Assembly: GCA_000432275.1 (NCBI GenBank)
Contig: HF995314.1
Location: 42,313-106,312, forward strand
DNA from: Proteobacteria bacterium CAG:495
GTDB taxonomy: Bacteria > Pseudomonadota > Alphaproteobacteria > RF32 > CAG-239
Reading direction: 5' to 3'
Length of the DNA: 64,000 nucleotides
Below are positions 11,677-41,813 of the stretch, piece after piece. How positions within the stretch are numbered: the stretch's first letter is position 1; each line of letters opens with the position of its first letter. The notes under the pieces were generated by a model, which ran no database searches, was not told where the DNA came from, and saw only the letters and a list, made by a program, of their open reading frames with translations. Position numbers and translations under genes: made by a program.

Positions 11677-14600
11677 TTACAGGCACTTGATATATTGCCA
11701 ATTGGTCGAGGTTGAGGTTTTGCAAACCAGAGCCGTCGTATTCGGACAAGAGGACGACGAGTAGCTCGGACCGTCACATTTACAATATTTTCCGTAAGTG
11801 ACGTTGGTCTCTTTATCTACGCAGACATCACTTTCATCCAGCCCCAGAATTGATCCGCAGGATGCCGGCGTAAATGTCGGATCGCTTCCGGATACCGGTT
11901 TGGAACGTTCAGAACAGACAATGTTCCCGGAGGCGCCTGCAACCTCAGAAGTATTGATATTTTTGCAGGTTGCGTCGGTTTTGTTATAAGCTGTGGGACA
12001 ACGGCAAACCTTATAACGGGTTTCAGTCGCGCCTCCGGCAAATTCAAAGGTTTTGCCATCGCTGAGTTCATTGGGTTCCGGACAATTTTCGCGGGTATAT
12101 TTCCAGGTACTTTCAATGTCAGCTTTGGGATACAGACAGGCATATTTTGTCGGCTGGTCGCATCCGGGACTGCAAGTGCTGTAGTTTTTGGGATGACCGC
12201 ATTGTCCGACAATAGCCGAAAGACTGGCAATGCTGTATGACGAACAGTCTGCCGGAACACACGGCTCCGGTTCCGGCTCGGGACAAGAGCCTGCAACATA
12301 TTTGGTCGACTTGGAGCCGTCGGCATTAATCGACGTGCAGGAATCCGCACCGGGCTGAATATTGGAGGTACAGGTTACCGTATATGAGCTGCCGCACAGA
12401 CAAGCCTTATAGCGTGTGACAGACTCTCCGTCGACCGTCGTCGTACAGCCGTTGGATAATGTATATTTGGCCGCATTGTTGGCGTCGTCTCCGTCATCGG
12501 TTCCGTCGCATTTGTACTTATAGGCTTCACCGCAACCGCAGCTTTTGTACTTTTGAGTCTGAACCTTCTGATTTCCGACATATTTTATCTCGGTGCAAAC
12601 CTCGCTCTTATCCGTGGGAATAGCTCCGGTTTCGGCACAGGTTTTAGAATACTCGTCTCCGCAGACGCAGGATTTGTAATAAGTTACGGTATCACCATCG
12701 GCATTGGTGGTTTGGCAGGCGTCATCTTCTGACCCCGGAGACTGGCCGTTGCCGTCACAAGTTTCGGAATACTGACTGCCGCATTCGCATTTGGAATAGA
12801 CGGTCTCCCCGCTTTCTCCCGTTGCCAGCAGCGGCGTACAGGGCGTACCCTTGACGTTTTTGGCGGGACATTGCAGATAATTTGCCGGGCATTTGCATTC
12901 CTTGAAAAGTTTGCTGCCGTTTTCGTCAATGCAGAAATCCTCACCCAGAGCGTCGGCCTGATAGCCGGAGCAGACATATTTATAGCCGTTGGCCTTGCAA
13001 TCTTTCGTATCCTGACATTCGGCGTATTTGGTGGTACCGTCCGAACTGGTACAGCTGCGCCCCATGCCCACCTGCTGTTTGGTACAGGTTTTGTAAATGC
13101 TTTCTTCGTCTTCGGTACAGGTATTTTCACCGGTACAGGCACTGTAAACCGTACCTCGTTCATTATCTACGCAGGTAGTGGCATTTTCGGCCGGAGAAGT
13201 TGAACTGCAACTGGTGTAGTTGGCCGGACAACGGCATTTATACATCATCTGATTGTCTTCTCCGAGGCACGGATCATATTTTTCCTGATTAGCGGCGCAA
13301 GCCTTTTGATGCTGATCGCTGCAGGCTGCCGCAGGTTTGGTACAGGACTGATAATAGGACACGCCGTCGACAACACAGGCCGAACCAACGCCGGTTTCAC
13401 CGTCTCCGCAGACTTTGTTATAGCCGGAGGCGCAGGTACAGCTTTCAAAATAAATCTTGTCGTTTTTGGTGCAGGGGTTAACGCCAACCTGCAAGGGATC
13501 GTTACAAGTCAGGTATTCGCCTTTGATGCACTCGCTTTGGGCTTTGCAGCTTTCATAGTAGTTTTCGCCGTTCAGAGAACAGGGCTTGCCCTCGCCAACC
13601 TGATTGGAAGAACATTTGCTCCAGCCGTCAGGACACTTACAGCTTTTATAGGCATAAATTTCACCCTGGTTATCCTGACAGGGGTCTACGCCTATCTGGA
13701 AATCGCCCTTGCATTGCTCGGTGTGCTGCCAGGTACACTGGCTGGCTTCACACTGGTAGTATTTTCCGCCGCAGCCGTTAGGTTTGGTGACGCCGGTCGG
13801 CTTGGCTCCGCCGGGACAGCCGTAATAATTGTCAACCCAGTTTTCCGGCAGTTCGTCTTTTTTGCATTCGCAGGCCTGATATTTGCCGTTGCAGGGTTCG
13901 CCAACGCCGACATACCGTTCTCCGTCGCAAACCTGATTGTAGTCTTCGGAACATTCACAGTAAGCGAAGAACTTCAGGCTGGTGACGCCGGCGGGAATGG
14001 TTCCGTCATTGTTTTCCGACGTAACCTCCTGCTCGCAGCCGCCGCCGTTTAACAGTCCGGCACAATTGTAGCGGTGATATTTATAGGCGGAATGACATTT
14101 GCACTCTTTATAGTAGCGTTTGCCGTTAATAACAATGCTGCCGCCGCCGAGAATGTGTCTGACCGGGCAGTTGTCGTCGGTCCACTTATATTCGCCGGGG
14201 TTAAAGTAGCAGTTAAAGCGGCGGATGTCGGGATCGTTGCGGTCTTCACACAAACGGGCTTCGGCACCGTCGCCGAGCTTCTGGCGGCATTCGCTTTCGC
14301 TCTTGGTTACAATAACCTGATAACCGTTGGTGTTGTCACCATCCTGATAACACTTTTCAAAGCTTCCGACTTTGCACATTCCCGTCTTATATTGCTTATC
14401 CGGGCTGGGATTGCTTGAAGCGTCGTATTTTCCGGCATAGCAGTATTTTTCGCCGCTCGGTTCTACCTGCGGATAGCGGCAAACTTCGCTGTAGACGGAA
14501 GTATCGCAGCTGCATTCATAATACGAAGTCGTTTCGTTGTCCTTGGTACAGGCTATTGCCGTTGCCGCGGTTCCCAACAATGTCTGGCAGGCGCCTTCAG

Positions 14601-16557
14601 AAGTTGCCAGAACGGCGCCCTCATTACATTTGCGCGCTTTACAAGACTGATAGTAGGTTATGCCGTCCACGGAACAAGCCGGGTGTTCGGCATCTACAAC
14701 CGGAGACAGATTATCTTCGCTGTCACAGGTCAGACGGCTGTCATAGGCGGAAGGACAATAACATTTATTGCGAATGACATGGTTGTCGCTGCATTGTTCA
14801 TAAACGGCACCCTGCCCCAGCTCCCACTGGCAGGCGCGATTATCGGAGATATCGTCTTCCATAATCGTGCCGTTGGACGACCCGCTGCTCGGCAACAGGC
14901 TGCACTTGGGATAACAATACTGATACTTGGTTTTGGCATAGGTTTCGCCCTCAAGCTGGCACATAAAACCGGTGCCTTCCTTATTGGCGGCGGCACACTG
15001 GGAATCAGTCAGATAGCTGGCCGGGCAATCGCAATAATAACGAACGTTCTCTTCCAAGGCCTGTCCGTTGGCATAACAGGTTTTGACATTAATTCCCTTA
15101 ACCCCGTCAAACGAGCAGGCATCTTCCGTGTAAAACAACGGGCGGTCCGCAGGACATCCCTCTTCATAGCTTTTAAACTTGGCATCGCCGTCATAAGTAC
15201 AAACTTCTCCGACACCGACTGCGGTATCAGAAGGAACTGCAGTGTAAGTGGAAGGACATCCGCATTCATAACGAACCTGCCCGTTGGTAACGCATACGGT
15301 TGTCGTTGCAGCATCTTCGCCTACTTTCGGACAACCGTCGGCAGTATCTACAACAGGACGGGCTGCCGTGTTAATACGACAATTTTTAGCGCAGGTTTCA
15401 TAATAGGTTTTACCCTGTTCCTGAACCTTACAACTGTCTCCGCCGCCGGCTTCGCCCTCGCCGCAGACTGAAAACGTATTGGGGCATTCGCACATATATT
15501 TGATTGTGGCAGGTTCGTCAGCCATATAGCACTGGGTTGCCGTAGTTGCGGTACCGCCCACCGTCTGACATTCAGCCATACTGTCCACCAATACCATATT
15601 TTCGTCACACTGAATAGCGCTGCGATTCAGCATACAGGCGGCATATTTTTCGCCACCGTCAAAAGTACAGGCCTGACCACCGCCCAAATTTCCGGGACAA
15701 ACGGTATAGTTTTCCGGACAGCTGCAACGATAACGCAGGCTTTGATCCGGCATAACGCACAAGACGGCATTCGGGGTATCAAAACTGTTTACCTTACATT
15801 CATCAATATTGGATTTAACGCTGCCGGCGGCAATATCCTCCTGAGAACAAGGTGCCGCGCAGATGTTTTTAACAATTCCGTCATAGTTGCAGGTGCTGAC
15901 GGCCGTCTGACCCGCGGGGCAGGCTCCTTCGGTATAATCCAAATCGGTAGGACAACTGCAGCTGTAAGAAGCCTTTTCGGCAAATTCTTCGGTAAAGCAC
16001 AAACCAGAATCAACGATGTTGTCTACAATTTTGCTGCAGGCTCCGGCTTCGTTCAACAACACAAAGTCCGAAGAGCATTCGGCATCTTCACTGGAAGTGT
16101 CGTTACCCTTGAAGCTACAGCACTGAGTTGCCGCGGCAGAGCAATCAGAGACTTTTTTCTTATTGTCATCGGCACAATAATCATAGGTATAAGAAAGCGG
16201 CGTTCCCTCGCTGCACAGCCCGGTCGCCTCATCGGTGATGAAAGTTCCCAGTCCCAGACAGCTGCTGTTAATTACAGCTCCCGAACTTTTGAACTGACAG
16301 CACATCTGAGTATCATTGCCGCATTTGTTTTTAAGCATAAAACTGTCGGCACAGTAATACGAAGCGTCTTCCTGACAGGTTCCGTCGGCGTTTACCTTGA
16401 ACGGTTCGTCAATACAGTCATATTTTGAACCATCCTTTTGGCGACAGCACTCTCGCCCGATAACATAACGGTTGTAATCATCACCGCTCTCGTTATCGGC
16501 AGCCAAAGGAGTTGCTTCGACCGCCCACGGAGAAATCGGGGGACTGATGCGCGACAA
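11677..16557 (-). CDS. giant Cys-rich repeat protein, C-terminal 1,626-aa fragment (frame open upstream to 16611; listed start is TTG inside a duplication)
   Basis: About 1 in 10 residues is Cys by eye. About 20 copies of the Y-x2-C-x-C-[PG]-x2-Y-x3-C module. No signal peptide of its own. Confidence 0.7.
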   Translation of the reverse strand: MSRISPPISPWAVEATPLAADNESGDDYNRYVIGRECCRQKDGSKYDCIDEPFKVNADGTCQEDASYYCADSFMLKNKCGNDTQMCCQFKSSGAVINSSCLGLGTFITDEATGLCSEGTPLSYTYDYCADDNKKKVSDCSAAATQCCSFKGNDTSSEDAECSSDFVLLNEAGACSKIVDNIVDSGLCFTEEFAEKASYSCSCPTDLDYTEGACPAGQTAVSTCNYDGIVKNICAAPCSQEDIAAGSVKSNIDECKVNSFDTPNAVLCVMPDQSLRYRCSCPENYTVCPGNLGGGQACTFDGGEKYAACMLNRSAIQCDENMVLVDSMAECQTVGGTATTATQCYMADEPATIKYMCECPNTFSVCGEGEAGGGDSCKVQEQGKTYYETCAKNCRINTAARPVVDTADGCPKVGEDAATTTVCVTNGQVRYECGCPSTYTAVPSDTAVGVGEVCTYDGDAKFKSYEEGCPADRPLFYTEDACSFDGVKGINVKTCYANGQALEENVRYYCDCPASYLTDSQCAAANKEGTGFMCQLEGETYAKTKYQYCYPKCSLLPSSGSSNGTIMEDDISDNRACQWELGQGAVYEQCSDNHVIRNKCYCPSAYDSRLTCDSEDNLSPVVDAEHPACSVDGITYYQSCKARKCNEGAVLATSEGACQTLLGTAATAIACTKDNETTSYYECSCDTSVYSEVCRYPQVEPSGEKYCYAGKYDASSNPSPDKQYKTGMCKVGSFEKCYQDGDNTNGYQVIVTKSESECRQKLGDGAEARLCEDRNDPDIRRFNCYFNPGEYKWTDDNCPVRHILGGGSIVINGKRYYKECKCHSAYKYHRYNCAGLLNGGGCEQEVTSENNDGTIPAGVTSLKFFAYCECSEDYNQVCDGERYVGVGEPCNGKYQACECKKDELPENWVDNYYGCPGGAKPTGVTKPNGCGGKYYQCEASQCTWQHTEQCKGDFQIGVDPCQDNQGEIYAYKSCKCPDGWSKCSSNQVGEGKPCSLNGENYYESCKAQSECIKGEYLTCNDPLQVGVNPCTKNDKIYFESCTCASGYNKVCGDGETGVGSACVVDGVSYYQSCTKPAAACSDQHQKACAANQEKYDPCLGEDNQMMYKCRCPANYTSCSSTSPAENATTCVDNERGTVYSACTGENTCTEDEESIYKTCTKQQVGMGRSCTSSDGTTKYAECQDTKDCKANGYKYVCSGYQADALGEDFCIDENGSKLFKECKCPANYLQCPAKNVKGTPCTPLLATGESGETVYSKCECGSQYSETCDGNGQSPGSEDDACQTTNADGDTVTYYKSCVCGDEYSKTCAETGAIPTDKSEVCTEIKYVGNQKVQTQKYKSCGCGEAYKYKCDGTDDGDDANNAAKYTLSNGCTTTVDGESVTRYKACLCGSSYTVTCTSNIQPGADSCTSINADGSKSTKYVAGSCPEPEPEPCVPADCSSYSIASLSAIVGQCGHPKNYSTCSPGCDQPTKYACLYPKADIESTWKYTRENCPEPNELSDGKTFEFAGGATETRYKVCRCPTAYNKTDATCKNINTSEVAGASGNIVCSERSKPVSGSDPTFTPASCGSILGLDESDVCVDKETNVTYGKYCKCDGPSYSSSSCPNTTALVCKTSTSTNWQYIKCL

Positions 16558-17848
16558 CGCCCATCGGGGTACTGATGCGCGACAACGCCTGGTTCGTTTC
16601 CTCCAACTCGGTCAAACATAAATGATAACTGCCGCGGACCGTCTTATCTCCGGCACATTCAGGCAGGCAAAGCTGATATTTGACATCAAGAGTGCGGGCC
16701 GAATTGCAGGTCCGTCCTCCGGCAACATATCCGACCGGGCAATCGCTCCGGCTTACGTAAGCGTCTTCTCCGTCCGCCGTTTGCGGGCAGCCGCAGTACT
16801 GAACCAACCGGTTATCGGAAATTACGCTTCCCTCAAGGACGCAGGTGTTCAGAACATCTCCGGCCATTTCACAGCTGTCGGTGCCTTCGGTTACCCGCGA
16901 CGGGCATTTGAGCTGGCAATATTCATAACGCCCCTGAGCTTCATCAATCAATGTCGCCTGTCCGTTTCGGTATGCGCCGTTCCAAATGCAGGCGCCGTTG
17001 AGCGCCGCTACGGCATAATCCGTTCCCTTAGCCGTTTTGCAGGAGGCTTCCGTATAGGGATAAACCTCTTCGTCGCATGCATATATCGTGCGCAGCTTAC
17101 GAGTGCCGTTGTTCATATTCTCGTAGCAGGAGCCGGCAACTTTGGTTCCCGCGAGCAATGCGGAAGTAGCCGGCGTGTCGTCGCCGAGGGTTTTGTTCAG
17201 TTGCTCCGAAGTACAGGCCGCATAATCACATTTCCAGAGCAAGGCTCCGTTCAGGGAACAACTCAATGCCGTTTTGCCGTCAGCGCAGGCCGGGCGTGAC
17301 GTTTCAGTATAAGAACTGTCGCACTGAAAATACAAATAGGGCGTATCATTACTGCTGCATCGACCGGCCTCGACACCCAAATTGTTGTCTACGTTGGTAT
17401 ACTTCTGAGCAATTGCCGATATTGAGCGGGAAATGGACACGCTGTCAGAGCCGGACACGGCCTCCCCCGTTCCGATGCCGCCGGTACAGGTTTCAAGATA
17501 GGTACAGGTTCCCTTGCTGCCGTCATCACAAAGCGTGTAGCTGACCTTATCGGTATCGACGCCCAAAGCCGTGGCGCAAAGGTTTTTGGCCGCAGCCTCG
17601 CCTCCTTCGGCAGAGATGGTTACCGGGCCGCAGGCAGGGAGATTGGCCCCTTCGTATGTTGACGTATGAGAAGTGTCTTCGTCGTCGGACGTACCGGCAC
17701 TGCCTGCAGAACCGGAGCTTCCGGCATTTTTGACGCTGAAGTTGCTGTTAAACGGAGTGTCCGCAATCGGCGTTACCGCCGCCAAAGCCAGTTCCGCCGC
17801 AGCAAAAAGTGACACTAAAACGAGGAGAATCTTCTTCATTTTCAACAT
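16493..17848 (-). CDS. giant Cys-rich repeat protein, N-terminal 451-aa fragment with signal peptide
   Basis: N-terminus MLKMKKILLVLVSLFAAAELALA (Sec signal), a GSSGSAGSAG linker, and a Cys-rich body containing YCGCPQT. The C-terminus runs into the 28-bp duplication. Confidence 0.7.
   Translation of the reverse strand: MLKMKKILLVLVSLFAAAELALAAVTPIADTPFNSNFSVKNAGSSGSAGSAGTSDDEDTSHTSTYEGANLPACGPVTISAEGGEAAAKNLCATALGVDTDKVSYTLCDDGSKGTCTYLETCTGGIGTGEAVSGSDSVSISRSISAIAQKYTNVDNNLGVEAGRCSSNDTPYLYFQCDSSYTETSRPACADGKTALSCSLNGALLWKCDYAACTSEQLNKTLGDDTPATSALLAGTKVAGSCYENMNNGTRKLRTIYACDEEVYPYTEASCKTAKGTDYAVAALNGACIWNGAYRNGQATLIDEAQGRYEYCQLKCPSRVTEGTDSCEMAGDVLNTCVLEGSVISDNRLVQYCGCPQTADGEDAYVSRSDCPVGYVAGGRTCNSARTLDVKYQLCLPECAGDKTVRGSYHLCLTELEETNQALSRISTPMGVVAHQSPDFSVGGRSNSFGCR
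16534..16589. repeat. 28-bp tandem direct duplication (2 mismatches) at the junction of the two Cys-rich ORFs
   Basis: Copy at 16534-16561 is aatcgggggactgatgcgcgacaacgcc. Copy at 16562-16589 is catcggggtactgatgcgcgacaacgcc. Period 28 = 3n+1. Confidence 0.85.
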
Positions 17849-18048: not shown

Positions 18049-21000
18049 TTATTTGCCTTCCGGGTAGTTTCCGTAGGCTTTTTCCCGCCAGGTCTGGAAC
18101 AGGATATAAAGCAGAGGAATCACTATCAGTCCGGCAATGGTACCCAGCATCATTCCGTAGAATACGGGCACGCCGATGGCAATACGGCTGGATGCGCCGG
18201 CACCGGTAGCCACAATCATGGGCAAAACACCCAGGATGAACGTGAATGCAGTCATCAAAACGGCACGAAAACGTTCTTTGGTACCGATTACCGCAGCTTT
18301 AATAATGCTGCTGCCGCGTTCGTGTTCCTCCTTGGAGAACTCAACCACCAAAATAGCGTTCTTGGCAGCCAAGCCAACCAGCAGGATAAGACCCAGCTGA
18401 GCATAAATGCTCAACGGCAGACCGGTTATGAACAAACCGAGCAGTGCACCGAGCATCGCCACGGAAACCGAAGTCAAAACCGGAAGCGGCGTAGACCAGC
18501 TTTCATACTGGGCAACCAGGAACAGATAAGCAAACGTCATTGCCAAGGCAATCAAATAACCGATTTGACCGCCGCTGGATTTTTCCTGATAGCTCATACC
18601 GGACCAATCGTAGCTGAAGCCTTCGGGCAGCTTCTGAGACAACGTCTCCAATGCCCCCATGGCCTGACCGGTACTGGAAGCCGGGTTTTGTACTGCCGTC
18701 ACGGTAGCGCTGGGATACTGGTTGTAGCGGGTAACAACACGCGGAGCCAAAACCTTGCGGAGGCTGACCAGGGCATCAAGCGGCACCATTTCGCCGTTCT
18801 GGTTTTGAACATGGAGCTTTTTGAGACTTTCGATATCCTTACGATATTTCCAGTCAGCCTGAATCATTACCTTGTTAACCTGGGTACCGAAGTTAACGTC
18901 GTTGACATAGCTGGAACCCAGATAATTTTGCAGCACGCTGTAAATACTGCCGATGGAAACTTTCATCGCTTCGGCTTTTTCACGGTCGATGTCGATGTAA
19001 AAGTTCGGCGTTTGTGCCGTATACGTGGTATAGGCATACATAATATTAGGATCCTGATTAATCAGCATCAAAATATTGTTTAAGGCAGCTTCAATTTTTT
19101 GCGGGTTGTCCGTATTCAGAGACTGCAGACGATAATCCATACCGCCGCTCATACCAAGACCCATAATTGCCGGCGGTTCAAACAACTGAATATCGGCTTC
19201 CGGCATACCGATAAGTTTGGCACGAATCCGGTTTAAGATATTGGTTGAATACAGTTCGTCACCGGGACGCTGGTTCCAAGGCTTTAGGGTAATAATACCC
19301 ATTGCAACGTTCTCGCCGCTGCCGCCAATCATACTGTGGCCGATAATTCCCATAACGTTATCAACGCCGGCCTCCTCCTTAAGCAGCGGATAAATCTTGT
19401 CCATAAACTGCTGCGTACGCATACGGCTGGCACCTTCGGGAAGCTGGACGTTCATAAAGATAACGCCCTGATCCTCGGAAGGAATGAATGACGTCTGACT
19501 GATGTGCAGCAAACCGCCCACACCGGCAAACAGCAATACCATTAACAGGAAAATGACACTTACCTTGCGGCCCACAAAACCGACGACGGAAGCATATTTA
19601 TCGCGACTTTTGTTGACAATACGGTTAAACCAGAACAACGGTCCCGACTGGGCCGGTTTCAGCGGACGCAGCAATGTTGCGCACAATGCCGGCGACAACG
19701 TCAACGCGTTCAGGGCGGAAAATGCCACCGACGTAGAAATCGCAATTGCAAACTGCTGATAAATCTTACCGGTAATACCGCCGAGAAAGCCGACCGGCAC
19801 AAAGATGGCCAACAGAACCAACGTGGTTGCGACAATAGCGCTGGAAACCTGTTCCATAGCCTTAATCGTCGCCTCTTTCGGCGAAAGCTTTTCATACTCC
19901 ATCAAATACAAAACGCGTTCGACCACCACAATCGCGTCGTCCACCACCAGACCGATGGCCAACACCAAACCGAACAGCGTCAGCATATTCAGGCTGAAGC
20001 CCAGAGCCAGCATTACGGCAAACGTCGCAAACAACGACACCGGAATGGTCAGGGTCGGAATAAGGGTTGAGCGCCAGTCCTGCAAAAAGACATAACAAAC
20101 CAAAATAACCAAAGCAAACGTCAAAACCAACGTGAAAATAACTTCTTCGATGGAAGCTTTAATATATTCGGTAGAGTCATAGCCGACGGTATAAATCATA
20201 TCTTCGGGGAAGCGCTGAGACAGACGTTCAATCTCGGCTTTAACGCCGTTCATGGCGTCCAGTGCGTTTGCACCGGCCAACTGGTTGATTGCAATCGCAA
20301 CGTTGGGAGCGCCGTTGAATTTGGAAGTCGCATCATAACTTTCTTCACCAATTTCCACCCGGGCGATATCTTTCAGGTAAACAAGACCGCCCTGCTCGGC
20401 AGTGCGAACGATAATATTCTGAAAGTCCTCGACTTCATTAATACGACCCTGCGTCTGCAACGTGTAGACCATTTGCTGGGTTCCGTCGCCGGGCATAGCG
20501 CCGACGCTGCCCAGAGAAGGCTGATAGTTCTGCCCTTCAATGGCGGACTTAATCGTATCGACAGGTATATTCAGAGCGGTAATTTTGTCAGCGTCAAGCC
20601 AAACGCGCATACTTAACCGGGAAGAATAAACGTTGACTTCGCCAACGCCGGCCACACGGCTCAAACTGTCCTTGACGTTGTTTTGAACGTAGTCGGCCAG
20701 CTGTAACTGAGAATATGTGCCTTTGGGCGAAATAATGCTGATAAAGCCCAACATATTTGAAGAACGGCTTTTAACCGTCAATCCCTGGCGGGTAACCTCC
20801 GTCGGAAGTTTGGACTGAGCCTGCTGGATACGGTTTTGAACCTTAACCTGAGCCATATCGCGGTCCACACCGACTTTAAAGGTAACGGTCAGAGAATAAC
20901 TGGAGTTCTCCGAAGAAGAACTCATGTAAAGCATATCTTCAACACCGTTGATTTCCTCTTCCAGAGGGATACCGATTGTCTTTGCCACAACCTCAGCGCT

Positions 21001-21159
21001 GGCGCCGGGATAAGATGCGGAAACCACAACTTCCGGCGGCGTGATTTCGGGATAAAGAGAAATCGGCAGCGAGAAAACAGAGATAATACCGGCCAGCGTC
21101 AACACGATGGAAATAACCATCGCAAAACGCGGGCGCTCAATAAAAATGCGTGAAAACAT
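18049..21159 (-). CDS. RND multidrug efflux permease (AcrB/HAE1 family)
   Basis: 1,036 aa with 12-TM and two large periplasmic loops, typical of AcrB. Conserved N-terminus [24 protein letters not shown]. Confidence 0.92.
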
Positions 21160-21162: not shown

Positions 21163-22413
21163 TTATTCTACCTCCGCGGTTTCAGTATCTGCATCATCAG
21201 CCGGAGACTGGACGTCCTCTTTCAGCGAATCAGCAACAATAACACGATTTTCGGCTTTTTCGTTTTTAATCTCGCCGACTTTTACCTTCTGGCCGTTGGT
21301 GACTTTTTGCAGACCTTGGATAATTACACGGTCATCAGCCGTCAGACCATCGGTAACGACCTGCTTGTCCTCGATAATATCACCAAGCAGAACGCGTCTT
21401 TCCTCGGCAATGTCTTCGTCGTTGACAACCATAACGTAGTTGCCGTGCTCGTCCTGGGCAATAGCTCCCTGCGGAACCAATACCGCCAGCTGCGGATCTT
21501 TCTTGCCGACGCGGATGTCAACATAGTTTCCGGGGATGAGCAGATTGCGTTCATTGCTGTACTCGGCATAGATTGCAATAGTTGCAGTATCCGAATTGAT
21601 TTCGTTGTCCGTAAAGCGGGACTTCAAATGATTGACCAAAATTTTGCCGTTGGGAAGCACCAGTTCCGTGCGGATGGGAGAAGAATCCGCACCGTTTTTG
21701 TACATCTCGCGCATATTCAACATATCTTTATCAGAAACGGAAAACGACACGCGAATCGGGTCGGTCTGAACGATGCGCGCAAGATTTTGCGTTGTTGAAT
21801 TGACGTAGTTTCCTTCGGTAACCAGAGCCTTACCGATGTAACCGGTAATCGGCGCCTTGATTTCGGTATAGTCCAAATCTATTTTTGCCAAATCGAGATT
21901 AGCCTCGGCCTGGGCAACCGCGGCCTTGGCCTGGAGATAGTTGCTTTCCGAAGTATCGAGCGTTGCCTTGGAAGCATAATTCTGACTGCTCAGGGACTTC
22001 TGGCGCTTATAATCACGCTCGGCACGAACCAGATTAGCCTTGGCGCTGGCCAGTTCCGCCTGGCGCAGCTCTACATTTGCGATATAGCGTTTTTGTTCTA
22101 TGATAAAGAGGATATCTCCTTCGTTTACCAGAGAACCTTCCTGAAACAGAACCTTTTCGACATAACCGGTAACCTGCGGTTTGAGGTTAACACTCTTGAT
22201 GGCTTCAACATGGCCGATATAAGAGGTGGCCGGAGAAATATTGCGGGTTTCAAGCTTCTGAACCAAAACATAAGGTTCGCCGGCTCCCATACCGCCCATC
22301 GGTGCCGATGACGGCGTTAACTTGCTTTTCAGAAACCATCCGAAAGCAACACATAAAACCAAAATAACAATCTGTCGAATAATGACGCGATTTTTAATTT
22401 TTCCTATAATCAT
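21163..22413 (-). CDS. RND efflux membrane fusion protein (AcrA-like periplasmic adaptor)
   Basis: 416 aa with lipoyl/hairpin/beta-barrel MFP organisation, directly upstream of the RND permease. Confidence 0.9.
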   Translation of the reverse strand: MIIGKIKNRVIIRQIVILVLCVAFGWFLKSKLTPSSAPMGGMGAGEPYVLVQKLETRNISPATSYIGHVEAIKSVNLKPQVTGYVEKVLFQEGSLVNEGDILFIIEQKRYIANVELRQAELASAKANLVRAERDYKRQKSLSSQNYASKATLDTSESNYLQAKAAVAQAEANLDLAKIDLDYTEIKAPITGYIGKALVTEGNYVNSTTQNLARIVQTDPIRVSFSVSDKDMLNMREMYKNGADSSPIRTELVLPNGKILVNHLKSRFTDNEINSDTATIAIYAEYSNERNLLIPGNYVDIRVGKKDPQLAVLVPQGAIAQDEHGNYVMVVNDEDIAEERRVLLGDIIEDKQVVTDGLTADDRVIIQGLQKVTNGQKVKVGEIKNEKAENRVIVADSLKEDVQSPADDADTETAEVE

Positions 22414-22415: not shown

Positions 22416-22868
22416 TTATTTCTTCTCCACTATAATACCATCCATAATCAGATCAAAAGCCTTAAGTACCATGACCGAAAAACATATTGGATACTGCTTT
22501 CCGATGTAAAGACCGAGGGTTCCCCGCCACGCACTTAAAAGGATTGACGCTAATTCATCGACATTAATATTGCTTGTTATTTGCTCACTTTTTTGCAACA
22601 AAGTCAATGTTTCTTTTGTTCTTTGCATAGGAAAATCACGAATCTCGCGAACCTGCTCGCCAATCTTCTGGGCAATGGCTTCAGACCATTCCATCTGATA
22701 AATCAAGAAAAATAAAAACTTGCAAAAATCAGGATCCTGTTCAATCGCCTGAGCGTGCAGCCTTATTTGTTCACGCAGGGCGTCAACCGTTAAAATCGTA
22801 TCCCGGGGCTCATTTTCGCGATGTTTGATGTCTATCCCGGGGCTCAATTTCGCGATGTTTGATGTCAA
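22416..22868 (-). CDS. TetR/AcrR-family regulator, C-terminal ligand-binding fragment
   Basis: Helical AcrR-like C-terminal domain. The N-terminus (MTSNIAKLSPGIDIKHRENEPRD) repeats the sequence at the end of the upstream fragment. Confidence 0.6.
   Translation of the reverse strand: MTSNIAKLSPGIDIKHRENEPRDTILTVDALREQIRLHAQAIEQDPDFCKFLFFLIYQMEWSEAIAQKIGEQVREIRDFPMQRTKETLTLLQKSEQITSNINVDELASILLSAWRGTLGLYIGKQYPICFSVMVLKAFDLIMDGIIVEKK
22800..22867. repeat. 34-bp tandem direct duplication (2 mismatches) inside the tetR/acrR gene
   Basis: Copy at 22800-22833 is atcccggggctcattttcgcgatgtttgatgtct. Copy at 22834-22867 is atcccggggctcaatttcgcgatgtttgatgtca. Period 34 = 3n+1. Confidence 0.85.
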
Positions 22869-23067
22869 ATTTTTGTTTAATCAGCGCCGCCAGCAAATCG
22901 GCCTTGTTGCGAAAATGCCAATAGACGGCTCCTTTAGTGAGGTTGATACGCTTGGCGACTTCGTCAAACGTCGTACGGGAAAAGCCTTTTTCATAAAATA
23001 TATCCAATGCGGATTTCAAAACCGCTTCACGGGTTTGCTCCGCCTCTTCTTTAGTCCTTCTAGCCAT
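22810..23067 (-). CDS. TetR/AcrR-family regulator, N-terminal HTH fragment
   Basis: TetR_N HTH (TREAVLKSALDIFYEKGFSRTTFDEVAKRINLTKGAVYWHFRNKADLL). Ends in ...DIKHREIEPRDRHQTSRK after the duplication. Confidence 0.65.
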   Translation of the reverse strand: MARRTKEEAEQTREAVLKSALDIFYEKGFSRTTFDEVAKRINLTKGAVYWHFRNKADLLAALIKQKFDIKHREIEPRDRHQTSRK

Positions 23068-23085
23068 TATTTATTCACTCGCAAT

Positions 23086-23115
23086 TATACATACTAAACT
23101 CGTGGTATGTATAAA
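23086..23115. promoter_or_regulatory. candidate TetR operator: perfect 10-bp inverted repeat TTATACATAC-N10-GTATGTATAA, with a third GTATGTATAA half-site at 23167-23176
   Basis: The palindrome lies 19-48 bp upstream of the tetR start codon, which is typical of autoregulated TetR operators overlapping their promoter. Confidence 0.45.
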
Positions 23116-23201
23116 CGAGCTATAAAAATTTGCAACAAAAAAATGAAAAGAAAATTTAAAAAATCGGTATGTATAATTAAAAAAACAGATATATACAGGC
23201 A

Positions 23202-30289: not shown

Positions 30290-31609
30290 TCAGGGTTTCC
30301 GCAACGTAAAAATCCACCCCATAACTTCGGCCTCACCTTCGTTGCGAAGCTTTGCCTCACTTTGGTTTGCCAAGACAAAACCACTTTTTTCCGCACAGCT
30401 TTTGACATAGTTTTCGGCATGAGCAAAACGTCCGGAAAGATGCAGATAATAATCCTGCGAATCAAACACGTTACGGGTTACGGAAAAAATAAAATTTCCA
30501 CCCGGAGCGAGAATACGAAAAAACGAATCAAAAACGTTTTGCAGTTCACCAAAATAAGTAAGAACATCCGCGGCGACAATCATATCGTACGGCGTTTCGG
30601 CAACTGCGGAAAAATGCTCCAAATCATCAACAAACAATTGTTTATAAATGTTTTTTTTGCGAGCTTCCATAATCATTCGAACAGATAAATCAACCCCGAA
30701 AAAAGCAGCGTGCGGCAAAATTTCCGACAGCAGTTTGGCACACAGACCGGTGCCGCAACCGGCGTCCAAAACATTGAGAGCAGCCTCAGAATCCGTACCG
30801 TAAATTTTAGCTGCCGCAGAGCGAATCAGCTGAGGTACGCTATAGTTTAACGCCGCCAAAGAATCCTCAAACGTGTCGGCAAAAACATCAAAAATATTTT
30901 GCACATATGCGGAATCCGCCTTAGTGACTTTCGGACTGTGGCGGAGGGAATCCGCGACATATTTTACCACGGCATTTTCCGAATAAGCGTCGAGCCATTT
31001 TTGCAAAGCGTCATCAATGTATTTTTCGCCTTTTTCGATTGCTGCTTCGTAAAGCGTATAGGCAAAATTTATATGCTGGGAATCCGCGCCGCCGCTTAAG
31101 GTTACGGCCTGCCAGGCATGCTCTATTCCGCGCAAGTGGTCGCCGCTTTTCTGGTAGGCCTGCCCCAGATAATTGTGAAGCCAAAAATCAGAAGAATCGA
31201 GTTGCAGCGCCTGCTGAAAAACGGGAATGGAATCCGCATAATCGTCTTCTTCAAAAAAAGCATATGCAAGTGCGGTCAGAGCCGAGACGTTTTGGGAATC
31301 GGTTTTTAAAACTTCCTGCGCATAACGGCGCGCTTCCGCATAATTGCGCATAGCATGAAAAGTGTTGGCAATGTTGATTTTCAAACTAACATCCCCGGGC
31401 GCCACTTTCTGCATTTTGCGATACCATTCCAGCGCCTTTTCATAATTGCGGCGGAGATAAAAAATATTGCCCAGAATAAGCAGGGAATCCGCATTTTTTT
31501 TATCAACCCGCAAAGCCTGCAACGCCAATTGCTCTGCAGCGGCATAATCTCCGCGGCGATAGGCTGCATTGCTGTCATAACTTAATTGTACTGCTGTGGA
31601 CTGCGACAT
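30290..31609 (-). CDS. TPR-repeat protein fused to class I SAM-dependent methyltransferase
   Basis: N-terminal tandem TPRs. C-terminal methyltransferase motif I VLDAGCGTGLCAKLL and post-I acidic residue (FFGVDLS). Confidence 0.8.
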   Translation of the reverse strand: MSQSTAVQLSYDSNAAYRRGDYAAAEQLALQALRVDKKNADSLLILGNIFYLRRNYEKALEWYRKMQKVAPGDVSLKINIANTFHAMRNYAEARRYAQEVLKTDSQNVSALTALAYAFFEEDDYADSIPVFQQALQLDSSDFWLHNYLGQAYQKSGDHLRGIEHAWQAVTLSGGADSQHINFAYTLYEAAIEKGEKYIDDALQKWLDAYSENAVVKYVADSLRHSPKVTKADSAYVQNIFDVFADTFEDSLAALNYSVPQLIRSAAAKIYGTDSEAALNVLDAGCGTGLCAKLLSEILPHAAFFGVDLSVRMIMEARKKNIYKQLFVDDLEHFSAVAETPYDMIVAADVLTYFGELQNVFDSFFRILAPGGNFIFSVTRNVFDSQDYYLHLSGRFAHAENYVKSCAEKSGFVLANQSEAKLRNEGEAEVMGWIFTLRKP

Positions 31610-31855
31610 TGTTTCTGATATCCGATTGTTTGAAATTTTGATACGGGGTATAGCATAAAGAATCTAAATTAATATTAATAAAATTCCAAAGCGTCTTTTT
31701 TTTACCGACAAACGAAGAGACTTTTTCAGGGGCCATATTCGATTTGCCCCCCAAAAAAATTCATTGAACATTTTTCATTCTGACTCGGTATGCCAAGTAT
31801 TTGATATTTATATGAGGGAATTTGCGCTTTAAAGTCAGAATGGAATAGAGAAAAA

Positions 31856-31893
31856 AAATAAAAAGCCTTGATAAAAAACCAAGGCTTTTCAAT
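31856..31893 (-). terminator. rho-independent terminator 3' of tRNA-Leu
   Basis: AAAGCCTTG / CAAGGCTTT stem followed on the minus strand by a U-rich tract. Confidence 0.55.
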
Positions 31894-31894
31894 T

Positions 31895-31980
31895 TGGTAG
31901 GGGTAGTCAGACTCGAACTGACACGGCCTGAGGCCACAAGATTTTGAGTCTAGCGCGTCTACCAGTTCCGCCATACCCCC
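31895..31980 (-). tRNA. tRNA-Leu (anticodon CAA), class II with long variable arm
   Basis: Manual fold: acceptor GGGGGTA/TACCCCT, anticodon loop CUCAAAA, variable arm GGCC/GGCC hairpin, T-arm GTCAG-TTCGAGT-CTGAC. The 3' end is CCA. D-arm nearly identical to E. coli tRNA-Leu. Confidence 0.9.
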
Positions 31981-32070
31981 ACAAAGTATTTGCATAAATA
32001 ATATATTTAATTGGACTCGTCAACAGTTTTTTTATAATATCTGAGAAGTTTTTAAGATAAGGAGAAAATT

Positions 32071-33036
32071 ATGCATATTCTGGTCATCGGCGGCGCCGGG
32101 TATATCGGCAGCCATGTGGTTAAGGCTCTGCTGGACAAAGGGATGCGGGTCACCGTTTTTGACAACCTCTCCACCGGACTGAAAATCAATTTTTTTGAAA
32201 AAGCCGAATATGTTGTCGGCGATATTCTGAACTATGACGAAATCGCCTCTGCCATGCAGAAGAATGTCGACGGGGTTGTTTTGCTGGCTGCAAAAAAAGC
32301 CGTCGGAGAATCGATGTCGTTTCCGGAAAAATATGCTCTCAACAACATCAGCGGGACAATCAACGTCTTAAACGCGATGAGTGCGCATAATGTCAAAAAT
32401 CTGGTATTTTCTTCTTCTGCGGCGGTTTACGGAATGCCCGAATATTTGCCGATTGACGAGCAGCATCCGCTCAATCCCATCAATTTTTACGGTTTTACCA
32501 AATACGACATGGAAAAATACTTTGAATGGTACGACCGTCTGAAAGGTATAAAATATGTTTCGCTGCGCTATTTTAACGCCGTCGGCTACGACGAGGACGG
32601 AGATGTCAGAGGCTTGGAAAAGAATCCGCAAAACCTGCTGCCCATCGTGATGGAAACGGCTGTCGGCATACGCGAGAAAATGCAAATTTTCGGCAACGAC
32701 TACGACACCCGCGACGGCACATGCATTCGGGATTACATACACGTTACGGACCTTGCCGCGGCGCACATTGCCGCCTTGGATTTTTTGAGCCGAAAACAGC
32801 AAAGCGAAATTTTTAACCTGGGAACCGAAACGGGTATCAGCGTGTTGGAAATGGTGAATAAAACCGAAGAACTTTTAGGATTGAAAATTAACTATGAATT
32901 TGCGCCGAGACGCCCGGGAGACCCCGCCGTTCTGACCGCTTCCGTCGGCAAAGCCCGTAAAGTTTTAGGCTGGACAGCCACGCACAGCAGCCTTGAAAAC
33001 ATTATACTTTCAACTTGGCAAGCATATAAACATTAG
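32071..33036 (+). CDS. galE: UDP-glucose 4-epimerase GalE
   Basis: Rossmann GGAGYIGSH, YxxxK catalytic region. 321 aa. Confidence 0.9.
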   Translation: MHILVIGGAGYIGSHVVKALLDKGMRVTVFDNLSTGLKINFFEKAEYVVGDILNYDEIASAMQKNVDGVVLLAAKKAVGESMSFPEKYALNNISGTINVLNAMSAHNVKNLVFSSSAAVYGMPEYLPIDEQHPLNPINFYGFTKYDMEKYFEWYDRLKGIKYVSLRYFNAVGYDEDGDVRGLEKNPQNLLPIVMETAVGIREKMQIFGNDYDTRDGTCIRDYIHVTDLAAAHIAALDFLSRKQQSEIFNLGTETGISVLEMVNKTEELLGLKINYEFAPRRPGDPAVLTASVGKARKVLGWTATHSSLENIILSTWQAYKH

Positions 33037-33109
33037 TTATACACAACTTTTTAAGAAAAAATTAAGAATTATATTTAGCACATTCAAAGCCACGATGAGG
33101 AGGACGAGA

Positions 33110-33322
33110 ATGGCCAAAATGAATGTTGCGACTTTTTTGATGGGAAACATCAGCAGCCGGCTTCCCAATGAGCTGGGCGAACACGAACGCGGAATAATCA
33201 TTAATCAGATGATAGAAAGCTGGGAAGACCGCAAATACCTGCATCCGCTGCCGCGGCATGAGACCAAACGTTCGGCCAACCATTTTTCAGCCGAATACAA
33301 TTGGGGCTTCCGAAAGAATTAG
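33110..33322 (+). CDS. hypothetical small protein (70 aa)
   Basis: Strong RBS GAGGAGGA 5-12 nt upstream of the ATG at 33110. No recognisable domain. Convergent with flaF. Confidence 0.35.
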   Translation: MAKMNVATFLMGNISSRLPNELGEHERGIIINQMIESWEDRKYLHPLPRHETKRSANHFSAEYNWGFRKN

Positions 33323-33344
33323 ACGGGACCGCCGGCGGAATTTT

Positions 33345-33710
33345 CTATCCGCCGTTGCCAGCCAGTCCTTTAGCAATATTCATATTGATGTTTATCAATA
33401 CGTTAAGTTTTTCGGGAGTTGGGTTAATCAAAATCTCCACAGTTCTTTGGAAAATAAACATTGCCAAGTTCAGAATGCTTCTTCTGACCTCTTCTGGCTG
33501 AGGACAATCCGCTTCGCCCATGGCAGAAGCCAAAATCGTCCACAATTTGCGATTTTTTTCTAACGCTTCATCCAACTCACTTTTACGCTCATCCCAGTTT
33601 TCCATAATTGCATTCAGAGCCGAAGCGGTCCGAATAAGGGCGCGGCTTTCCAATTCTGTCTGCTCAAGCCCTAAAACCTGGTTTTGCGTATAGTTTTGAG
33701 ATGCGTCCAT
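33345..33710 (-). CDS. flaF: flagellar biosynthesis regulator FlaF
   Basis: 121 aa. The pattern RKLWTILASAMGEADCPQPEEVRRSILNLAMFIFQRT...INMNIAKGLAG parallels Caulobacter/Sinorhizobium FlaF (RLWxxLaxD...LPxELRaqI.sL..). No flbT partner downstream. Confidence 0.7.
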   Translation of the reverse strand: MDASQNYTQNQVLGLEQTELESRALIRTASALNAIMENWDERKSELDEALEKNRKLWTILASAMGEADCPQPEEVRRSILNLAMFIFQRTVEILINPTPEKLNVLININMNIAKGLAGNGG

Positions 33711-33826
33711 TTATATAATTTTCATCCTTATAAAATGTTTCTTAACCTAATTACAGTATGATGATAACATCGTTTAAGTTACGGAATGGTAAACATCCGC
33801 AGAAAAAAATATTAGGGACGAAACTA

Positions 33827-34717
33827 ATGAAAAAGATTATGTCATTTGGTTTGGCTGCCGCATTTATCGCCGTCAGCATTATGAGCGCACAGGCTATGGT
33901 CCGCTACGAAGACAAGTACCCGAAAAAAATCCGGGAAGTGCGAATCACCGGGTTTATCGACTATGCCCCGTTTGGTTACACCCAGCATCCGGACAGCAAA
34001 ATGCGCGGCAAATTTTTCTCGGTTTATCAGCCGATGATTGATACGTTTCAGAAAGAAAACAATCTGAAAATCATATACAACCTCAAGAAAAACGATTATG
34101 AAGACCTGGTTGCTGCCGTTCGCAGCGGCGACATCGACATGATTTTGGGAATGTATCACGAAACGGAATTATACAAAGGTCTGGAGGCGGTTTATCCGTC
34201 AATCATGAGCAATCCGATTACGGTTTTTATGCTGCCGAATCGCATTAACGAGGTTCAAAAAATAGAAGACTTGAAAAAGCTGAAAGGCGTCGGCATCACA
34301 AAAGAGCACTACAGCGACTATGTTGCGGAGCAGATTAAACAATATAATCTGGAAATGGTTGACACGCCTTATGAATTGTTTGAACGTTTATTTACCAAAA
34401 AAGCCGATTATATTATGGTCAGCCAGTACTATGGCCTGGTTGAGGCAATCAAACTGGGACTGAGGGAACAAATCAGCATCGCCAAGCAAACCCTTTGGAA
34501 GATGCCCCTGTTTATCGGCGTCTCAAAGATTTCGCCGCAGCGCAAGCTTATCACCCAGAAACTTACCCGTTTTTCCGAAGATCCGAAAAACCAACAGCTG
34601 ATTGAAGACTATCTCAAACAGATGATTGCCGATTTTGAAAAAGAATACAACGGCGTCGTACCGCCGACTTTCGGCCTGGAAAAAGACGCTCCGCAAAAAA
34701 ACGACGAACAGAAGTGA
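33827..34717 (+). CDS. periplasmic solute-binding protein (SBP family 3-like)
   Basis: Signal peptide MKKIMSFGLAAAFIAVSIMSAQA followed by a two-lobe SBP-like sequence. Confidence 0.7.
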   Translation: MKKIMSFGLAAAFIAVSIMSAQAMVRYEDKYPKKIREVRITGFIDYAPFGYTQHPDSKMRGKFFSVYQPMIDTFQKENNLKIIYNLKKNDYEDLVAAVRSGDIDMILGMYHETELYKGLEAVYPSIMSNPITVFMLPNRINEVQKIEDLKKLKGVGITKEHYSDYVAEQIKQYNLEMVDTPYELFERLFTKKADYIMVSQYYGLVEAIKLGLREQISIAKQTLWKMPLFIGVSKISPQRKLITQKLTRFSEDPKNQQLIEDYLKQMIADFEKEYNGVVPPTFGLEKDAPQKNDEQK

Positions 34718-34783
34718 TGTCTGCTTGACCTTTAAAATCTTGCAGGTAGAATAAATTAAACCAGTTTAGAAAAGGCGAATAAC

Positions 34784-35449
34784 ATGGTATTGCTGATACA
34801 TCATCCGGTTTCCCCGCACGCCAGAAAAATCAGAGCATTGATGAGCGAAAAAAAGATGCTGTTCATCCTAAAGGAAGAAGAGCCCTGGAAGCTTTCCGAC
34901 GATGTATACAAACTTAATCCGGCAGGAGAACTTCCGATATTTCTGAGCGACGGCAACGTGGTGGTGGGCAATTACGCAATCACCGAATATCTGGAAGAAA
35001 CCGGTTCCGAAGCGCCGATGATAAGCGGCGATGCCAAGCAACGAGCCGAAATCCGCCGTATTACGGAATGGTTTGACAACAAGTTTTACAAAGAGGTCTA
35101 CCGCAACATCGTTTACGAAAAGGTGCACAAGCGCTTTGCCCAGGGGAGCGCGCCGGATTCAAAAATTCTGAAAGTAGGCTTAAACAACCTTAACTTTCAT
35201 CTTGAATATCTTGACTGGCTGCTGGAACGCCGCACTTATCTGGCAACGGACGAATTTACGCTGGCCGACATTGCCGCCGCAGCGCATTTGTCTATCATCG
35301 ATTATCTCGGCGACGTTCCCTGGGACTTGTACCGCAATGTCAAACTTTGGTATTCCAAGGTCAAATCCCGCCCTTGCTTTAAAGACATCCTCAAGGATAA
35401 CATTCGCGGTATTCTGCCGGCAAAACATTATGCAAATTTAGATTTTTAA
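34784..35449 (+). CDS. glutathione S-transferase
   Basis: N-terminal thioredoxin-like GST fold (HHPVSPHARKIRAL...ELPIF...GNYAITEYLEE) and GST_C helices (LADIAAAAHLSIIDYL). Confidence 0.8.
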   Translation: MVLLIHHPVSPHARKIRALMSEKKMLFILKEEEPWKLSDDVYKLNPAGELPIFLSDGNVVVGNYAITEYLEETGSEAPMISGDAKQRAEIRRITEWFDNKFYKEVYRNIVYEKVHKRFAQGSAPDSKILKVGLNNLNFHLEYLDWLLERRTYLATDEFTLADIAAAAHLSIIDYLGDVPWDLYRNVKLWYSKVKSRPCFKDILKDNIRGILPAKHYANLDF

Positions 35450-35458
35450 GAGGAAGCA

Positions 35459-35923
35459 ATGAATAAAAAACTGCTGCTGACATTTATGGCCTGCGCCCTG
35501 AGTTCCTGCACTTACTTTCAAAAAGGCGCCGGGCAGGTCGTATATCACTGGGAAAAACCGCATACCGGCGTAGAAAAGTTTTCGCGGGATCATGCCGAGT
35601 GCCTGATGGCGGCAAAGGAATTCAAATTAATGCCGGACTTCCGCTCCTGGTTTTACACCGAAGAGACTAAACTCGACACCCGTGCCGACTGGAAGTCATC
35701 TAAGGGTATCTGGGCTTCTTACGTGCCCTACCCCGGCGCACAGCCGCTCATCGTAAACTCCCGTTATGACGACGACGACATCAGTCCCAAAAATTATCGT
35801 AAATGTATGCAAAGCAAAGGATACTGGGCAAGGGAGCACGACATCCCGGAAATTACCAACATCAACCTTTACAAAGCTCGTACGCCCTACTTGCGGCAGC
35901 CGTTCAGCTCACCCAATATCTGA
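35459..35923 (+). CDS. hypothetical lipoprotein
   Basis: Lipobox LSSC after an N-terminal signal. 154 aa, no known domain. Confidence 0.6.
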   Translation: MNKKLLLTFMACALSSCTYFQKGAGQVVYHWEKPHTGVEKFSRDHAECLMAAKEFKLMPDFRSWFYTEETKLDTRADWKSSKGIWASYVPYPGAQPLIVNSRYDDDDISPKNYRKCMQSKGYWAREHDIPEITNINLYKARTPYLRQPFSSPNI

Positions 35924-37329
35924 GGCAGAGTTTGGGGACAATAACCGCCGCCCACCGCTTTGTAAAAAGTGACGATGTTTTGATAAATTGCAGCATTGCT
36001 GGCTATCAGGGTGTTTTCGGATTCAAGGAGGTTTTGCTGCGAAGTCAGGACATCGCTGAAGTCTATCAACCCCTGTTTGTATTTTTCCAGCGTTAGCGAC
36101 GCGACTTCTTTCTGAGCCGTCACCGCTTCGTTTGAAGAACTGTTGCGTTCATATTCCTGCTCCAGCGCAACCACGGCATTGCGAATTTCCGCCGCAGCGT
36201 TCAGCAGCGCAGACTGGTACTGATACATTTTTTCACGCGTTGCAGATTTTTGCAATTCGACGTTTTCGCTTAGCTGTCCCCAATGGAACAAAGGAAGTCC
36301 GATTGCGGGCGAAATGCTGTACATATCATGCGAACTGCTTATCAGACTTGACAAGTTTCGAGACTGATAACCGAGAAAACCGCTGATGCTGACCGAGGGA
36401 AAAAGCTCTGCAATCGCCTGGCCGATTTTGGCATTCTGGGCAACAAGCTGCTGTTCGGTTATACGCACGTCGGGACGGTTACGGATGACCGATACGGGAA
36501 GGTTGTACAGCTGTTGAATATCATAATCAAAACGGCGGCGGACAAGATTGCGGGAAGCATCTTCGACATCGGCATTCAACTCTCCGGGCAATTTTCCGAC
36601 CAAAATGGCCAAAGCATTGCGGTAGGCCTCGAGTTGCGCCTTTAGCTGCGGAATGAGAGCCTGCGTCGTTTCAACAATGTAGCGCGATTGGTTCAAGGCG
36701 ACGTCATCAGCCAATCCGGCTTCGTTTTTGGCTTTTACCAGCTCATATATGTCTTGTTGCAGCTTGAGATTGCGTTCGGAAATACGCAGCTGTTCCTGAG
36801 CACGGCGCAGGTTAAAATAGTTATTGGCTATTTCCGCCGTCAGTGTCAGTTTGACGTTATCGAGGTTTGAGGCTGCCGCTCGCACCAAAGCCTGAGAACT
36901 TTCGGTCAACCTGCGGCCGCCGCCCCAAATGTCGAGTTCCCAGCTGGCATCCAATCCGGTCTGATAATAGTCAGTAGTAATCGGAACGCCGTAACTGACC
37001 GAATCTTTCACCTTATGATAACTGCCGTCAATATCGAGCATCGGAAAATTATTTACGGCATTAATACGCAAACTGTTGCGCGACTGGCGCAAATTTTCAA
37101 CCGCGGCAGAAACGTCAGGATTATGCTGTAACCCCTGAAGCACCATACGGTTCAGCAAAGTATCGTTAAACCGGCGATACCATTCGCGTTCTACCGGCTG
37201 CGCAACTTCATTCAACCGCAGGGACGCGCTAATCGCCTTGTCGGTATAGATTTCCGGTCGGCGGTAATCCGGGCCAAGGGTGCAAGACGACAGCAATGCC
37301 AAAGAAAACAGCGAAAAATATCTACGCAT
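35887..37329 (-). CDS. outer-membrane efflux lipoprotein (NodT/OprM OMF family)
   Basis: Start chosen at [16 protein letters not shown] (lipobox) with RBS AAAGGAGG. It overlaps the upstream RND stop by 8 nt (ATGCGTAG). Two OEP repeats are present. Confidence 0.85.
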
Positions 37330-40300: not shown

Positions 40301-40537
40301 CATATAAAGCATTCCCTCTACGCCGTTAATCTGGTTCTCAATCGGAACGGCGACGGTATCGACCAACACCTGAGCGTTTGAACCGGGATACGAGGTTTGC
40401 ACCACAATCTGCGGCGGCGTAATCTGCGGATACTGGGAGACCGGCAAAACGGCAATGGCAAGCAGTCCCAGCAAAATCATAACAATGGATATGACGCCGG
40501 CAAATCGCGGCTTATCGATAAAAAATTCCGAGAACAT
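37322..40537 (-). CDS. RND multidrug efflux permease (AcrB/HAE1 family), second copy
   Basis: 1,071 aa. N-terminus [24 protein letters not shown]. Paralogous to the 18049..21159 gene. Confidence 0.92.
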
Positions 40538-41727: not shown

Positions 41728-41813
41728 GACATCCCCTGCATAAAGTTTGTTTCTTTGACGATTAAACTTTAAATAAGCGGGATTTGCCTGTATTCAAGAT
41801 AAGAAATTTAAGA

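Follow-up and report, generated by a model that had tools for sequence, protein, structure and literature searches.

Is the TetR/AcrR-family regulator of an efflux operon broken in the uncultured bacterium behind the assembly of Proteobacteria bacterium CAG:495, or is it broken only in the deposited sequence? The question arises in a 64-kb stretch of this assembly (the whole stretch of DNA analysed here, hereafter the window), in which a short tandem duplication shifts the reading frame of the regulator gene. The features at issue are the following:

22416..23067, minus strand: gene of the TetR/AcrR-family regulator, 652 nt in the deposit; without the extra copy, 618 nt (205 aa).
22810..23067, minus strand: ORF of the N-terminal fragment, 85 aa, consisting of the HTH and a 7-residue frameshift tail.
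22416..22868, minus strand: ORF of the C-terminal remainder, 150 aa from a mechanical TTG start, not an independent gene.
22833..22866, minus strand: copy 1 of the 34-nt unit, GACATCAAACATCGCGAAATTGAGCCCCGGGATA, genuine sequence (identical to the single copy of the same-strain contigs).
22832-22799, minus strand: copy 2 of the 34-nt unit, GACATCAAACATCGCGAAAATGAGCCCCGGGATA, the extra and probably artefactual copy.

The repeat spans 22799-22866 (TRF: period 34, 2.0 copies, 97% matches, score 129), far beyond what is expected by chance. The initial annotation had recognised the 34-bp tandem duplication, placing it one position off (22800-22867). It had also counted two mismatches; the copies differ at 22813 alone, where a T to A change turns Ile into Asn. 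The repeat measures exactly 2 x 34 nt, with sharp edges and no microhomology, and it hits the linker of the protein (tetR nt 202-235). The ORF list gives the two fragments at the coordinates first reported, and both do read D-I-K-H-R-E-x-E-P-R-D in adjacent frames. The translation of copy 1 is ...DIKHREIEPRD..., as in the 205-aa orthologues. Removing one copy, whichever it is, yields a single open gene of 618 nt, as had been foreseen, although its product has 205 aa and not ~224. A GAG codon private to the strain is present in both copies, which shows that the extra copy derived from the window strain's own sequence.

The restored protein belongs to the TetR/AcrR family. It matches TetR_N (PF00440) over residues 17-62 (Pfam, 59.7 bits for a cutoff of 24, E 2.3e-16) and aligns end to end with homologues of 201-215 aa, 969 of them at E <= 1e-3. 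The nearest homologue, P0001, has 205 aa and is 99% identical; the exact 205-aa protein (P0148, with a strain-private Met188) is encoded in 12 contigs. The 85-aa fragment retains the TetR_N HTH (61.8 bits, E 5e-17). It is identical to CCZ31146.1, 'transcriptional regulator TetR family [Proteobacteria bacterium CAG:495]', which is the single record known. Other proteins of the window in the CAG:495 record, a contig of 118,614 bp, are the MFP (CCZ31144.1), MalQ (CCZ31147.1) and a 451-aa fragment discussed below (CCZ31142.1). The best PDB matches are TtgR (E 9.5e-17), the SmeT-type repressor 2w53, NalD, MtrR and AcrR, and they cover mainly the HTH (query residues 1-85). The top NCBIfam models all score far below their equivalog cutoffs (MtrR 97.5 vs 280, EnvR-type 84.7 vs 274, AcrR 72.0 vs 271), and thus, judged by these scores, the protein is a TetR/AcrR-family member close to the efflux-repressor group and not an orthologue of any named repressor. 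It resembles the TtgR/SmeT/NalD/MtrR/AcrR subgroup in size (~205-220 aa) and in adjoining an MFP-RND operon, but the similarity is essentially restricted to the N-terminal HTH. The genes acrR, mtrR and ttgR are divergently transcribed, whereas the tetR of the window lies directly upstream of the pump genes in the same orientation. The neighbouring features are:

21163..22413, minus strand: RND periplasmic adaptor (MFP), 416 aa, intact; TIGR01730 at 265.8 bits for a cutoff of 94.9.
18049..21159, minus strand: RND inner-membrane permease (HAE-1 type), 1036 aa, intact; PF00873 at 1046 bits, TIGR00915 at 1133 bits for a cutoff of 940.
23085..23114, no strand: operator-like perfect inverted repeat I4, TTATACATAC-N10-GTATGTATAA, with a presumed function.
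23113..23084, minus strand: sigma-70-like promoter site, 10/12 matches, overlapping the inverted repeat just upstream of tetR.

The regulator gene does adjoin an RND efflux operon, as first described: tetR is the first gene of a tetR-MFP-RND operon, with 2 nt between its stop and the ATG of the MFP gene, and the two downstream genes are intact and above family thresholds. In the protein collection, 3939 blocks list this exact MFP. A third copy of the inverted-repeat motif lies at 23166-23176. From this arrangement we infer that the intact 205-aa regulator is probably an autoregulated repressor of the operon, acting at the upstream palindrome.

Several observations concern the operon itself. 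Its promoter region is polymorphic among assemblies (23153-23196 and 23178-23186), with a 9-bp indel (TGTTTTTTT) and a block of SNPs that adjoin three copies of the motif TATACATAC. The longer form of the indel is shared by the window and L008, L011, L013, L014, L018, and L035, and the indel could alter the spacing of the operator. The 5' part of the RND gene (19961-21000) has ~150 SNPs per kb between two haplotype groups (5 of the 10 conspecific loci), on a background that is otherwise 99% identical, and looks like a recombination tract in the permease gene. The operon has no OMF gene of its own. A second, complete MFP-RND-OEP operon lies at 35887-41727 on the minus strand (396, 1071, and ~480 aa), with the OEP gene (PF02321 in conspecifics) in last position, and its outer-membrane factor may be borrowed by the tetR-linked operon.

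If the duplication were a property of the organism, it should be present in other sequences of the same strain. We found ten same-strain contigs (L050-L052 and L053-L059) by searching for the exact MalQ allele of the window, which is rare (six contigs), and for the exact one-copy TetR. Each of them has in common with the window every window-private SNP that it covers. They include contigs from other MetaHIT-era runs, Logan assemblies of ERR011169 and ERR321143, and re-assemblies labelled CHAT13 and NIEL14. The strain was seen in ERR4090656, ERR4090657, SAMEA2042096 and SAMEA2162530 as well. Their matches to the window are:

L050 (Logan ERR4090656, 11.7 kb): 6840/6840 and 4932/4933 nt.
L052 (Logan ERR011169): 2739/2739 and 1357/1358 nt.
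L053 (Logan ERR13983163): 10,235/10,235 nt upstream of the junction.
L051, L054 (GCA_900521105.1), L056, L057 (ERR321143), L058 (CHAT13), and L059 (NIEL14): comparable matches.

All ten carry one 34-mer, identical to copy 1, and encode an intact 205-aa repressor. Near tetR, the extra 34 nt and position 22813 are all that separates them from the window, except for a few bases in three shorter contigs; over its 11.7 kb, L050 has no mismatch to the window besides the repeat site. This is as close to single-copy resequencing as assembled contigs allow.

The comparison with the rest of the species gave the same picture. A second copy of the 34-mer is absent from all 50 conspecific loci examined, each of which has exactly one. 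Eight metagenome contigs with the 99%-identical protein of P0001 type have the order debranching-type enzyme, MalQ, tetR, MFP, RND, and one 34-mer; ten long contigs with the exact MFP protein of the window and ten with its exact RND protein show the same synteny and also one 34-mer. With one-copy 205-aa orthologues in equal synteny in every other assembly examined, the proposal that a single TetR/AcrR gene was broken by the 34-nt duplication stands. The Asn variant of the TetR protein is absent from a collection of 15 billion proteins. Neither duplication junction (a second one is described below) had a match in species-representative genomes or JGI metagenomes; the single-copy 41-mer was likewise unmatched in the species-representative genomes, where its source is probably masked. 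Exact look-ups of the 85-aa and 451-aa fragment proteins gave no retrievable contigs.

The sequence of the window is otherwise excellent, since the 73.6-kb same-strain contig L019 matches it without a mismatch over 30537-46098 and 47111-51610. We tiled the whole window against conspecific contigs (~99% identity), and its private gene-breaking indels were two duplications only: the one in tetR and another at 16.5 kb, 6.3 kb away in an unrelated gene. The features there are:

16535..16589, minus strand: second duplication, a 27-nt unit present twice with one extra G between the copies; 28 nt inserted.
11677..17848, minus strand: gene of a giant Cys-rich secreted protein of 2044 aa, split here into ORFs of 451 and 1626 aa.

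TRF describes the second duplication (16535-16589) as period 28, 2.0 copies, and 96% matches, and like the first it lacks flanking microhomology. It comes with three window-only substitutions (16562, 16542, 16526). At the same place in other loci the giant protein is intact, with 2041-2047 aa, and the 451-aa fragment (CCZ31142.1) occurs in the CAG:495 record only. Neither the same-strain contig L055 nor any other locus covering the site has the 28-nt insertion; they all have a single copy. L055 (9.4 kb) extends across both duplications and has one copy at each; its sole differences from the window are the two insertions and positions 22813, 17784, 16542, and 16526. As to 17784, near the N-terminus of the giant protein, the window has T whereas the same-strain L054 and L055 and all other loci have G; this may be a further base error in the assembly.

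Since the gene is intact, with a single copy of the unit, in other assemblies of the same strain, we consider the 34-nt duplication very likely to be an artefact of the deposited CAG:495 assembly, and not a mutation of the organism. The bacterium itself almost certainly encodes the intact 205-aa TetR/AcrR-family regulator, as far as assembled sequences can tell. The assembly dates from 2013-14 and is a short-read, metagenomic-species one; the CAG assemblies in general are presumably the short-read metagenomic-species assemblies of MetaHIT samples (Nielsen et al., 2014). The duplications could have arisen there as follows. At 22.8 kb, two adjacent pieces of the assembly would have shared 34 nt at their ends; at 16.5 kb, another such pair would have shared ~28 nt. 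On the plus strand, each left-hand piece would have had its 3' end built from the error-bearing tail of a read, making the overlap imperfect. As for the exact assembler step, we infer one of scaffolding or gap closing that butted the pieces together with no merging. The tail errors would explain why the pieces were concatenated instead of merged, and the unmerged overlap would then read as a near-perfect, frameshifting tandem duplication.

The distribution of the errors is consistent with such joins. On the plus strand, the right-hand copy is error-free in both events (22833-22866 and 16563-16589), and the window-only substitutions are confined to the left-hand piece, to its last 20 nt in one case (22813) and its last 37 nt in the other (16562, 16542, 16526). 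The joins thus have one substitution in 34 nt and three in 37 nt, whereas L050 has 0 other differences over 11.7 kb, so the mismatches cannot be ordinary mutations that followed a duplication. They look like the low-quality tail of a read at the end of a contig. Similar base errors at contig ends are also seen at the same locus in other assemblies, at the start of L059 (first 18 nt) and of L056 (first 12 nt). The lengths of the overlaps differ (34 vs 27-28 nt). There is thus no fixed k-mer overlap length, and the joins do not correspond to a simple de Bruijn k-overlap.

Unmerged overlaps of contig ends, leading to false tandem duplications, are a well-known class of artefacts in short-read assemblies. 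The window resembles this class in having near-perfect tandem duplications of a few tens of bases that recur within one assembly, show errors at only one of the joined ends, are missing from independent same-strain assemblies, and cause spurious frameshifts and split gene calls. It differs in the variable length of the overlap (34 vs 27-28 nt) and in the lack of a run of N at the joins. A literature search on CAG groups and gap-closer duplications returned nothing usable.

Other origins of the duplications were rejected. A chimeric join of two strains is not the cause at tetR, because the same haplotype continues across the junction; the haplotype of the window switches elsewhere, between ~23157 and 23056 and at the RND-internal block (19.96-21.0 kb). 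Overall poor quality, such as the homopolymer errors of long reads, does not fit a window that has no other private gene-breaking indels in 64 kb and is identical to L019, with 0 mismatches, over 20 kb. The 6.27-kb segment between the duplications is also not an imported or recombined cassette, given that its identity to L055 is uniform across both junctions.

That this repressor should lose its function is biologically plausible, given the different lesions found in the same linker in other assemblies. L034 (3001-3577) has a 41-bp deletion of tetR nt 192-232. Four contigs from two run series (L035-L038; L035:3001-3617) lack 1 nt at tetR nt 226, in a run of C. The products P0136, P0138, and P0142 end in frameshifts at runs of T, and P0140 (80 aa) and P0149 (a 92-aa C-terminal fragment with Met188) represent a broken allele on the background of the window strain. 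The lesions cluster in the poorly conserved linker that follows the HTH (tetR nt 192-240). They are apparently real alleles, different from that of the window, that inactivate the repressor and segregate in human gut metagenomes. We discarded P0144 and P0145 as real truncations: they have Nextera-adapter tails and are plainly artefacts. In L037, the MFP gene is split too.

Frameshifts, deletions, and duplications in efflux repressor genes are known to derepress the pump. The locus resembles the loci with such alleles (acrR, mtrR, mexR/nalC/nalD, ramR, smeT, ttgR) in that a TetR/AcrR-type regulator adjoins an MFP-RND pump and in that genuine-looking frameshift and deletion alleles of this tetR exist in other metagenome assemblies. 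It differs in that the allele of the window is unsupported as real, and in that the organism is not a clinical isolate but an uncultured gut alphaproteobacterium.

The rival explanation that survives best is a real and very recent duplication in a sub-lineage, made for example when a staggered break was filled in and its ends were joined, with the mismatch produced in the same error-prone event. The TetR would then be truncated after the HTH and the MFP-RND pump derepressed. A lone TetR-family HTH without a dimerisation domain is expected to be non-functional, which fits this scenario, as does the strain-private GAG codon in both copies. The same linker is struck by natural lesions elsewhere (L034, L035-L038); the 80-aa P0140 ends in a T4 run just past the unit, and the C-terminal P0149 bears Met188. 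Furthermore, two of the substitutions lengthen an adjacent homopolymer (AAATT to AAAAT, TACCCC to TCCCCC), which would match polymerase dislocation during error-prone repair. However, ten same-strain contigs have a single copy, and the allele is found in no other assembly, its 85-aa product being on record from the CAG:495 deposit only. A fresh copy should also be perfect, yet this one has a unique substitution where the 11.7-kb flanks have none. The ends lack microhomology, and 6.3 kb away there is a second frameshifting duplication with three clustered substitutions and the same left-side polarity of errors. Taken together, we regard a real duplication of tetR, whether in a sub-lineage or as a minority allele of the sample behind the assembly, as unlikely.

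The same evidence contradicts what had been deduced from the duplication, namely a truncated repressor in the organism, a derepressed pump with a phenotype of the acrR/mexR/ramR type, and reversion by recombination between the repeats. The independent same-strain assemblies are all single-copy with an intact repressor, the substitution of the extra copy occurs in no other sequence, and there is a second duplication of the same type nearby.

One may also imagine a real and common origin of the two duplications in a sub-lineage, through an error-prone process independent of microhomology that hit two sites 6.3 kb apart, flanking the MFP-RND genes, and inactivated the pump repressor. We find this quite improbable. 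The route would be fill-in of staggered breaks of ~28-34 nt, end joining, and dislocation-type substitutions in the new copy, a sequence of events to which we give equally little credence. If it were true, then together with the other linker alleles it would suggest that derepression of efflux has been selected repeatedly within the host in an uncultured commensal. Slipped-strand duplication was rejected separately, for lack of flanking microhomology at either event.

A contingency (phase-variable) locus, in which the number of repeat copies would switch the expression of the repressor on and off, is hardly credible. Direct repeats can indeed gain and lose copies through recombination or slippage, and the length of the unit is not divisible by three. 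Nonetheless, all 50 conspecific loci have exactly one copy, with no polymorphism in copy number; the unit lies in ordinary coding sequence that is non-repetitive in relatives, and there are only two copies, imperfect ones. Finally, it is next to inconceivable that the two ORFs are separate genes, one for a stand-alone HTH protein and the other for an independent ligand-domain protein: each is open in the sequence as deposited, but the C-terminal one has no Pfam match on its own and is colinear in alignments with residues 68-205 of the full-length orthologues, among hundreds of homologues of 201-215 aa, and all syntenic unbroken loci encode one 205-aa protein, so that the comparison of orthologues places this ORF within a single gene, as the initial annotation had assumed.

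Other structural features in and around the window were noted. The gene at 45931-47463 is hypervariable: its product, of 510 aa in the window, ranges over 494-568 aa in other assemblies. Compared with L019, this gene is 117 bp shorter (in frame) in the window, with a cluster of 9 SNPs, and several short-read contigs end in it; a collapsed repeat, true variation, or a further problem of assembly could each be the reason. The parts of the window at 1-32 kb and 47-64 kb are ~257 kb apart in two contigs of ~1.9 Mb (GCA_046970505.1 and ERZ28761944 contig_2; L024/L009 vs L030, and L028 vs L033), rather than ~50 kb. The arrangement of the window is backed by L019 and by four shorter contigs up to ~46-51 kb. 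Either the structure is polymorphic here, or pieces were misjoined close to the variable gene. In L030, a Y1 transposase has inserted near the place that corresponds to 49 kb in the window. In the long-contig MAG GCA_046970505.1 (L009:11255-14367), the RND permease is broken into two parts, of 689 and 311 aa, and L048 has both MalQ and the debranching enzyme broken. Such breaks are probably due to indel errors in long-read assembly and not to biology.

The very probable artefact has consequences for the use of the record. The CAG:495 deposit carries false frameshifts that lead to split or "pseudogene" calls (CCZ31146.1, CCZ31142.1), and reading efflux derepression, pseudogenisation, or a resistance genotype from it would mislead. 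Its probable masking in the species-representative collection suggests that this assembly may be the reference genome of a very prevalent uncultured alphaproteobacterium of the human gut. Should two events per 64 kb be typical of the whole genome, CAG:495 and its sister CAG assemblies may have dozens of affected genes. A useful by-product of the analysis is the set of different, apparently real loss-of-function alleles of the repressor in human gut metagenomes, which could be compared with metadata on antibiotic exposure.
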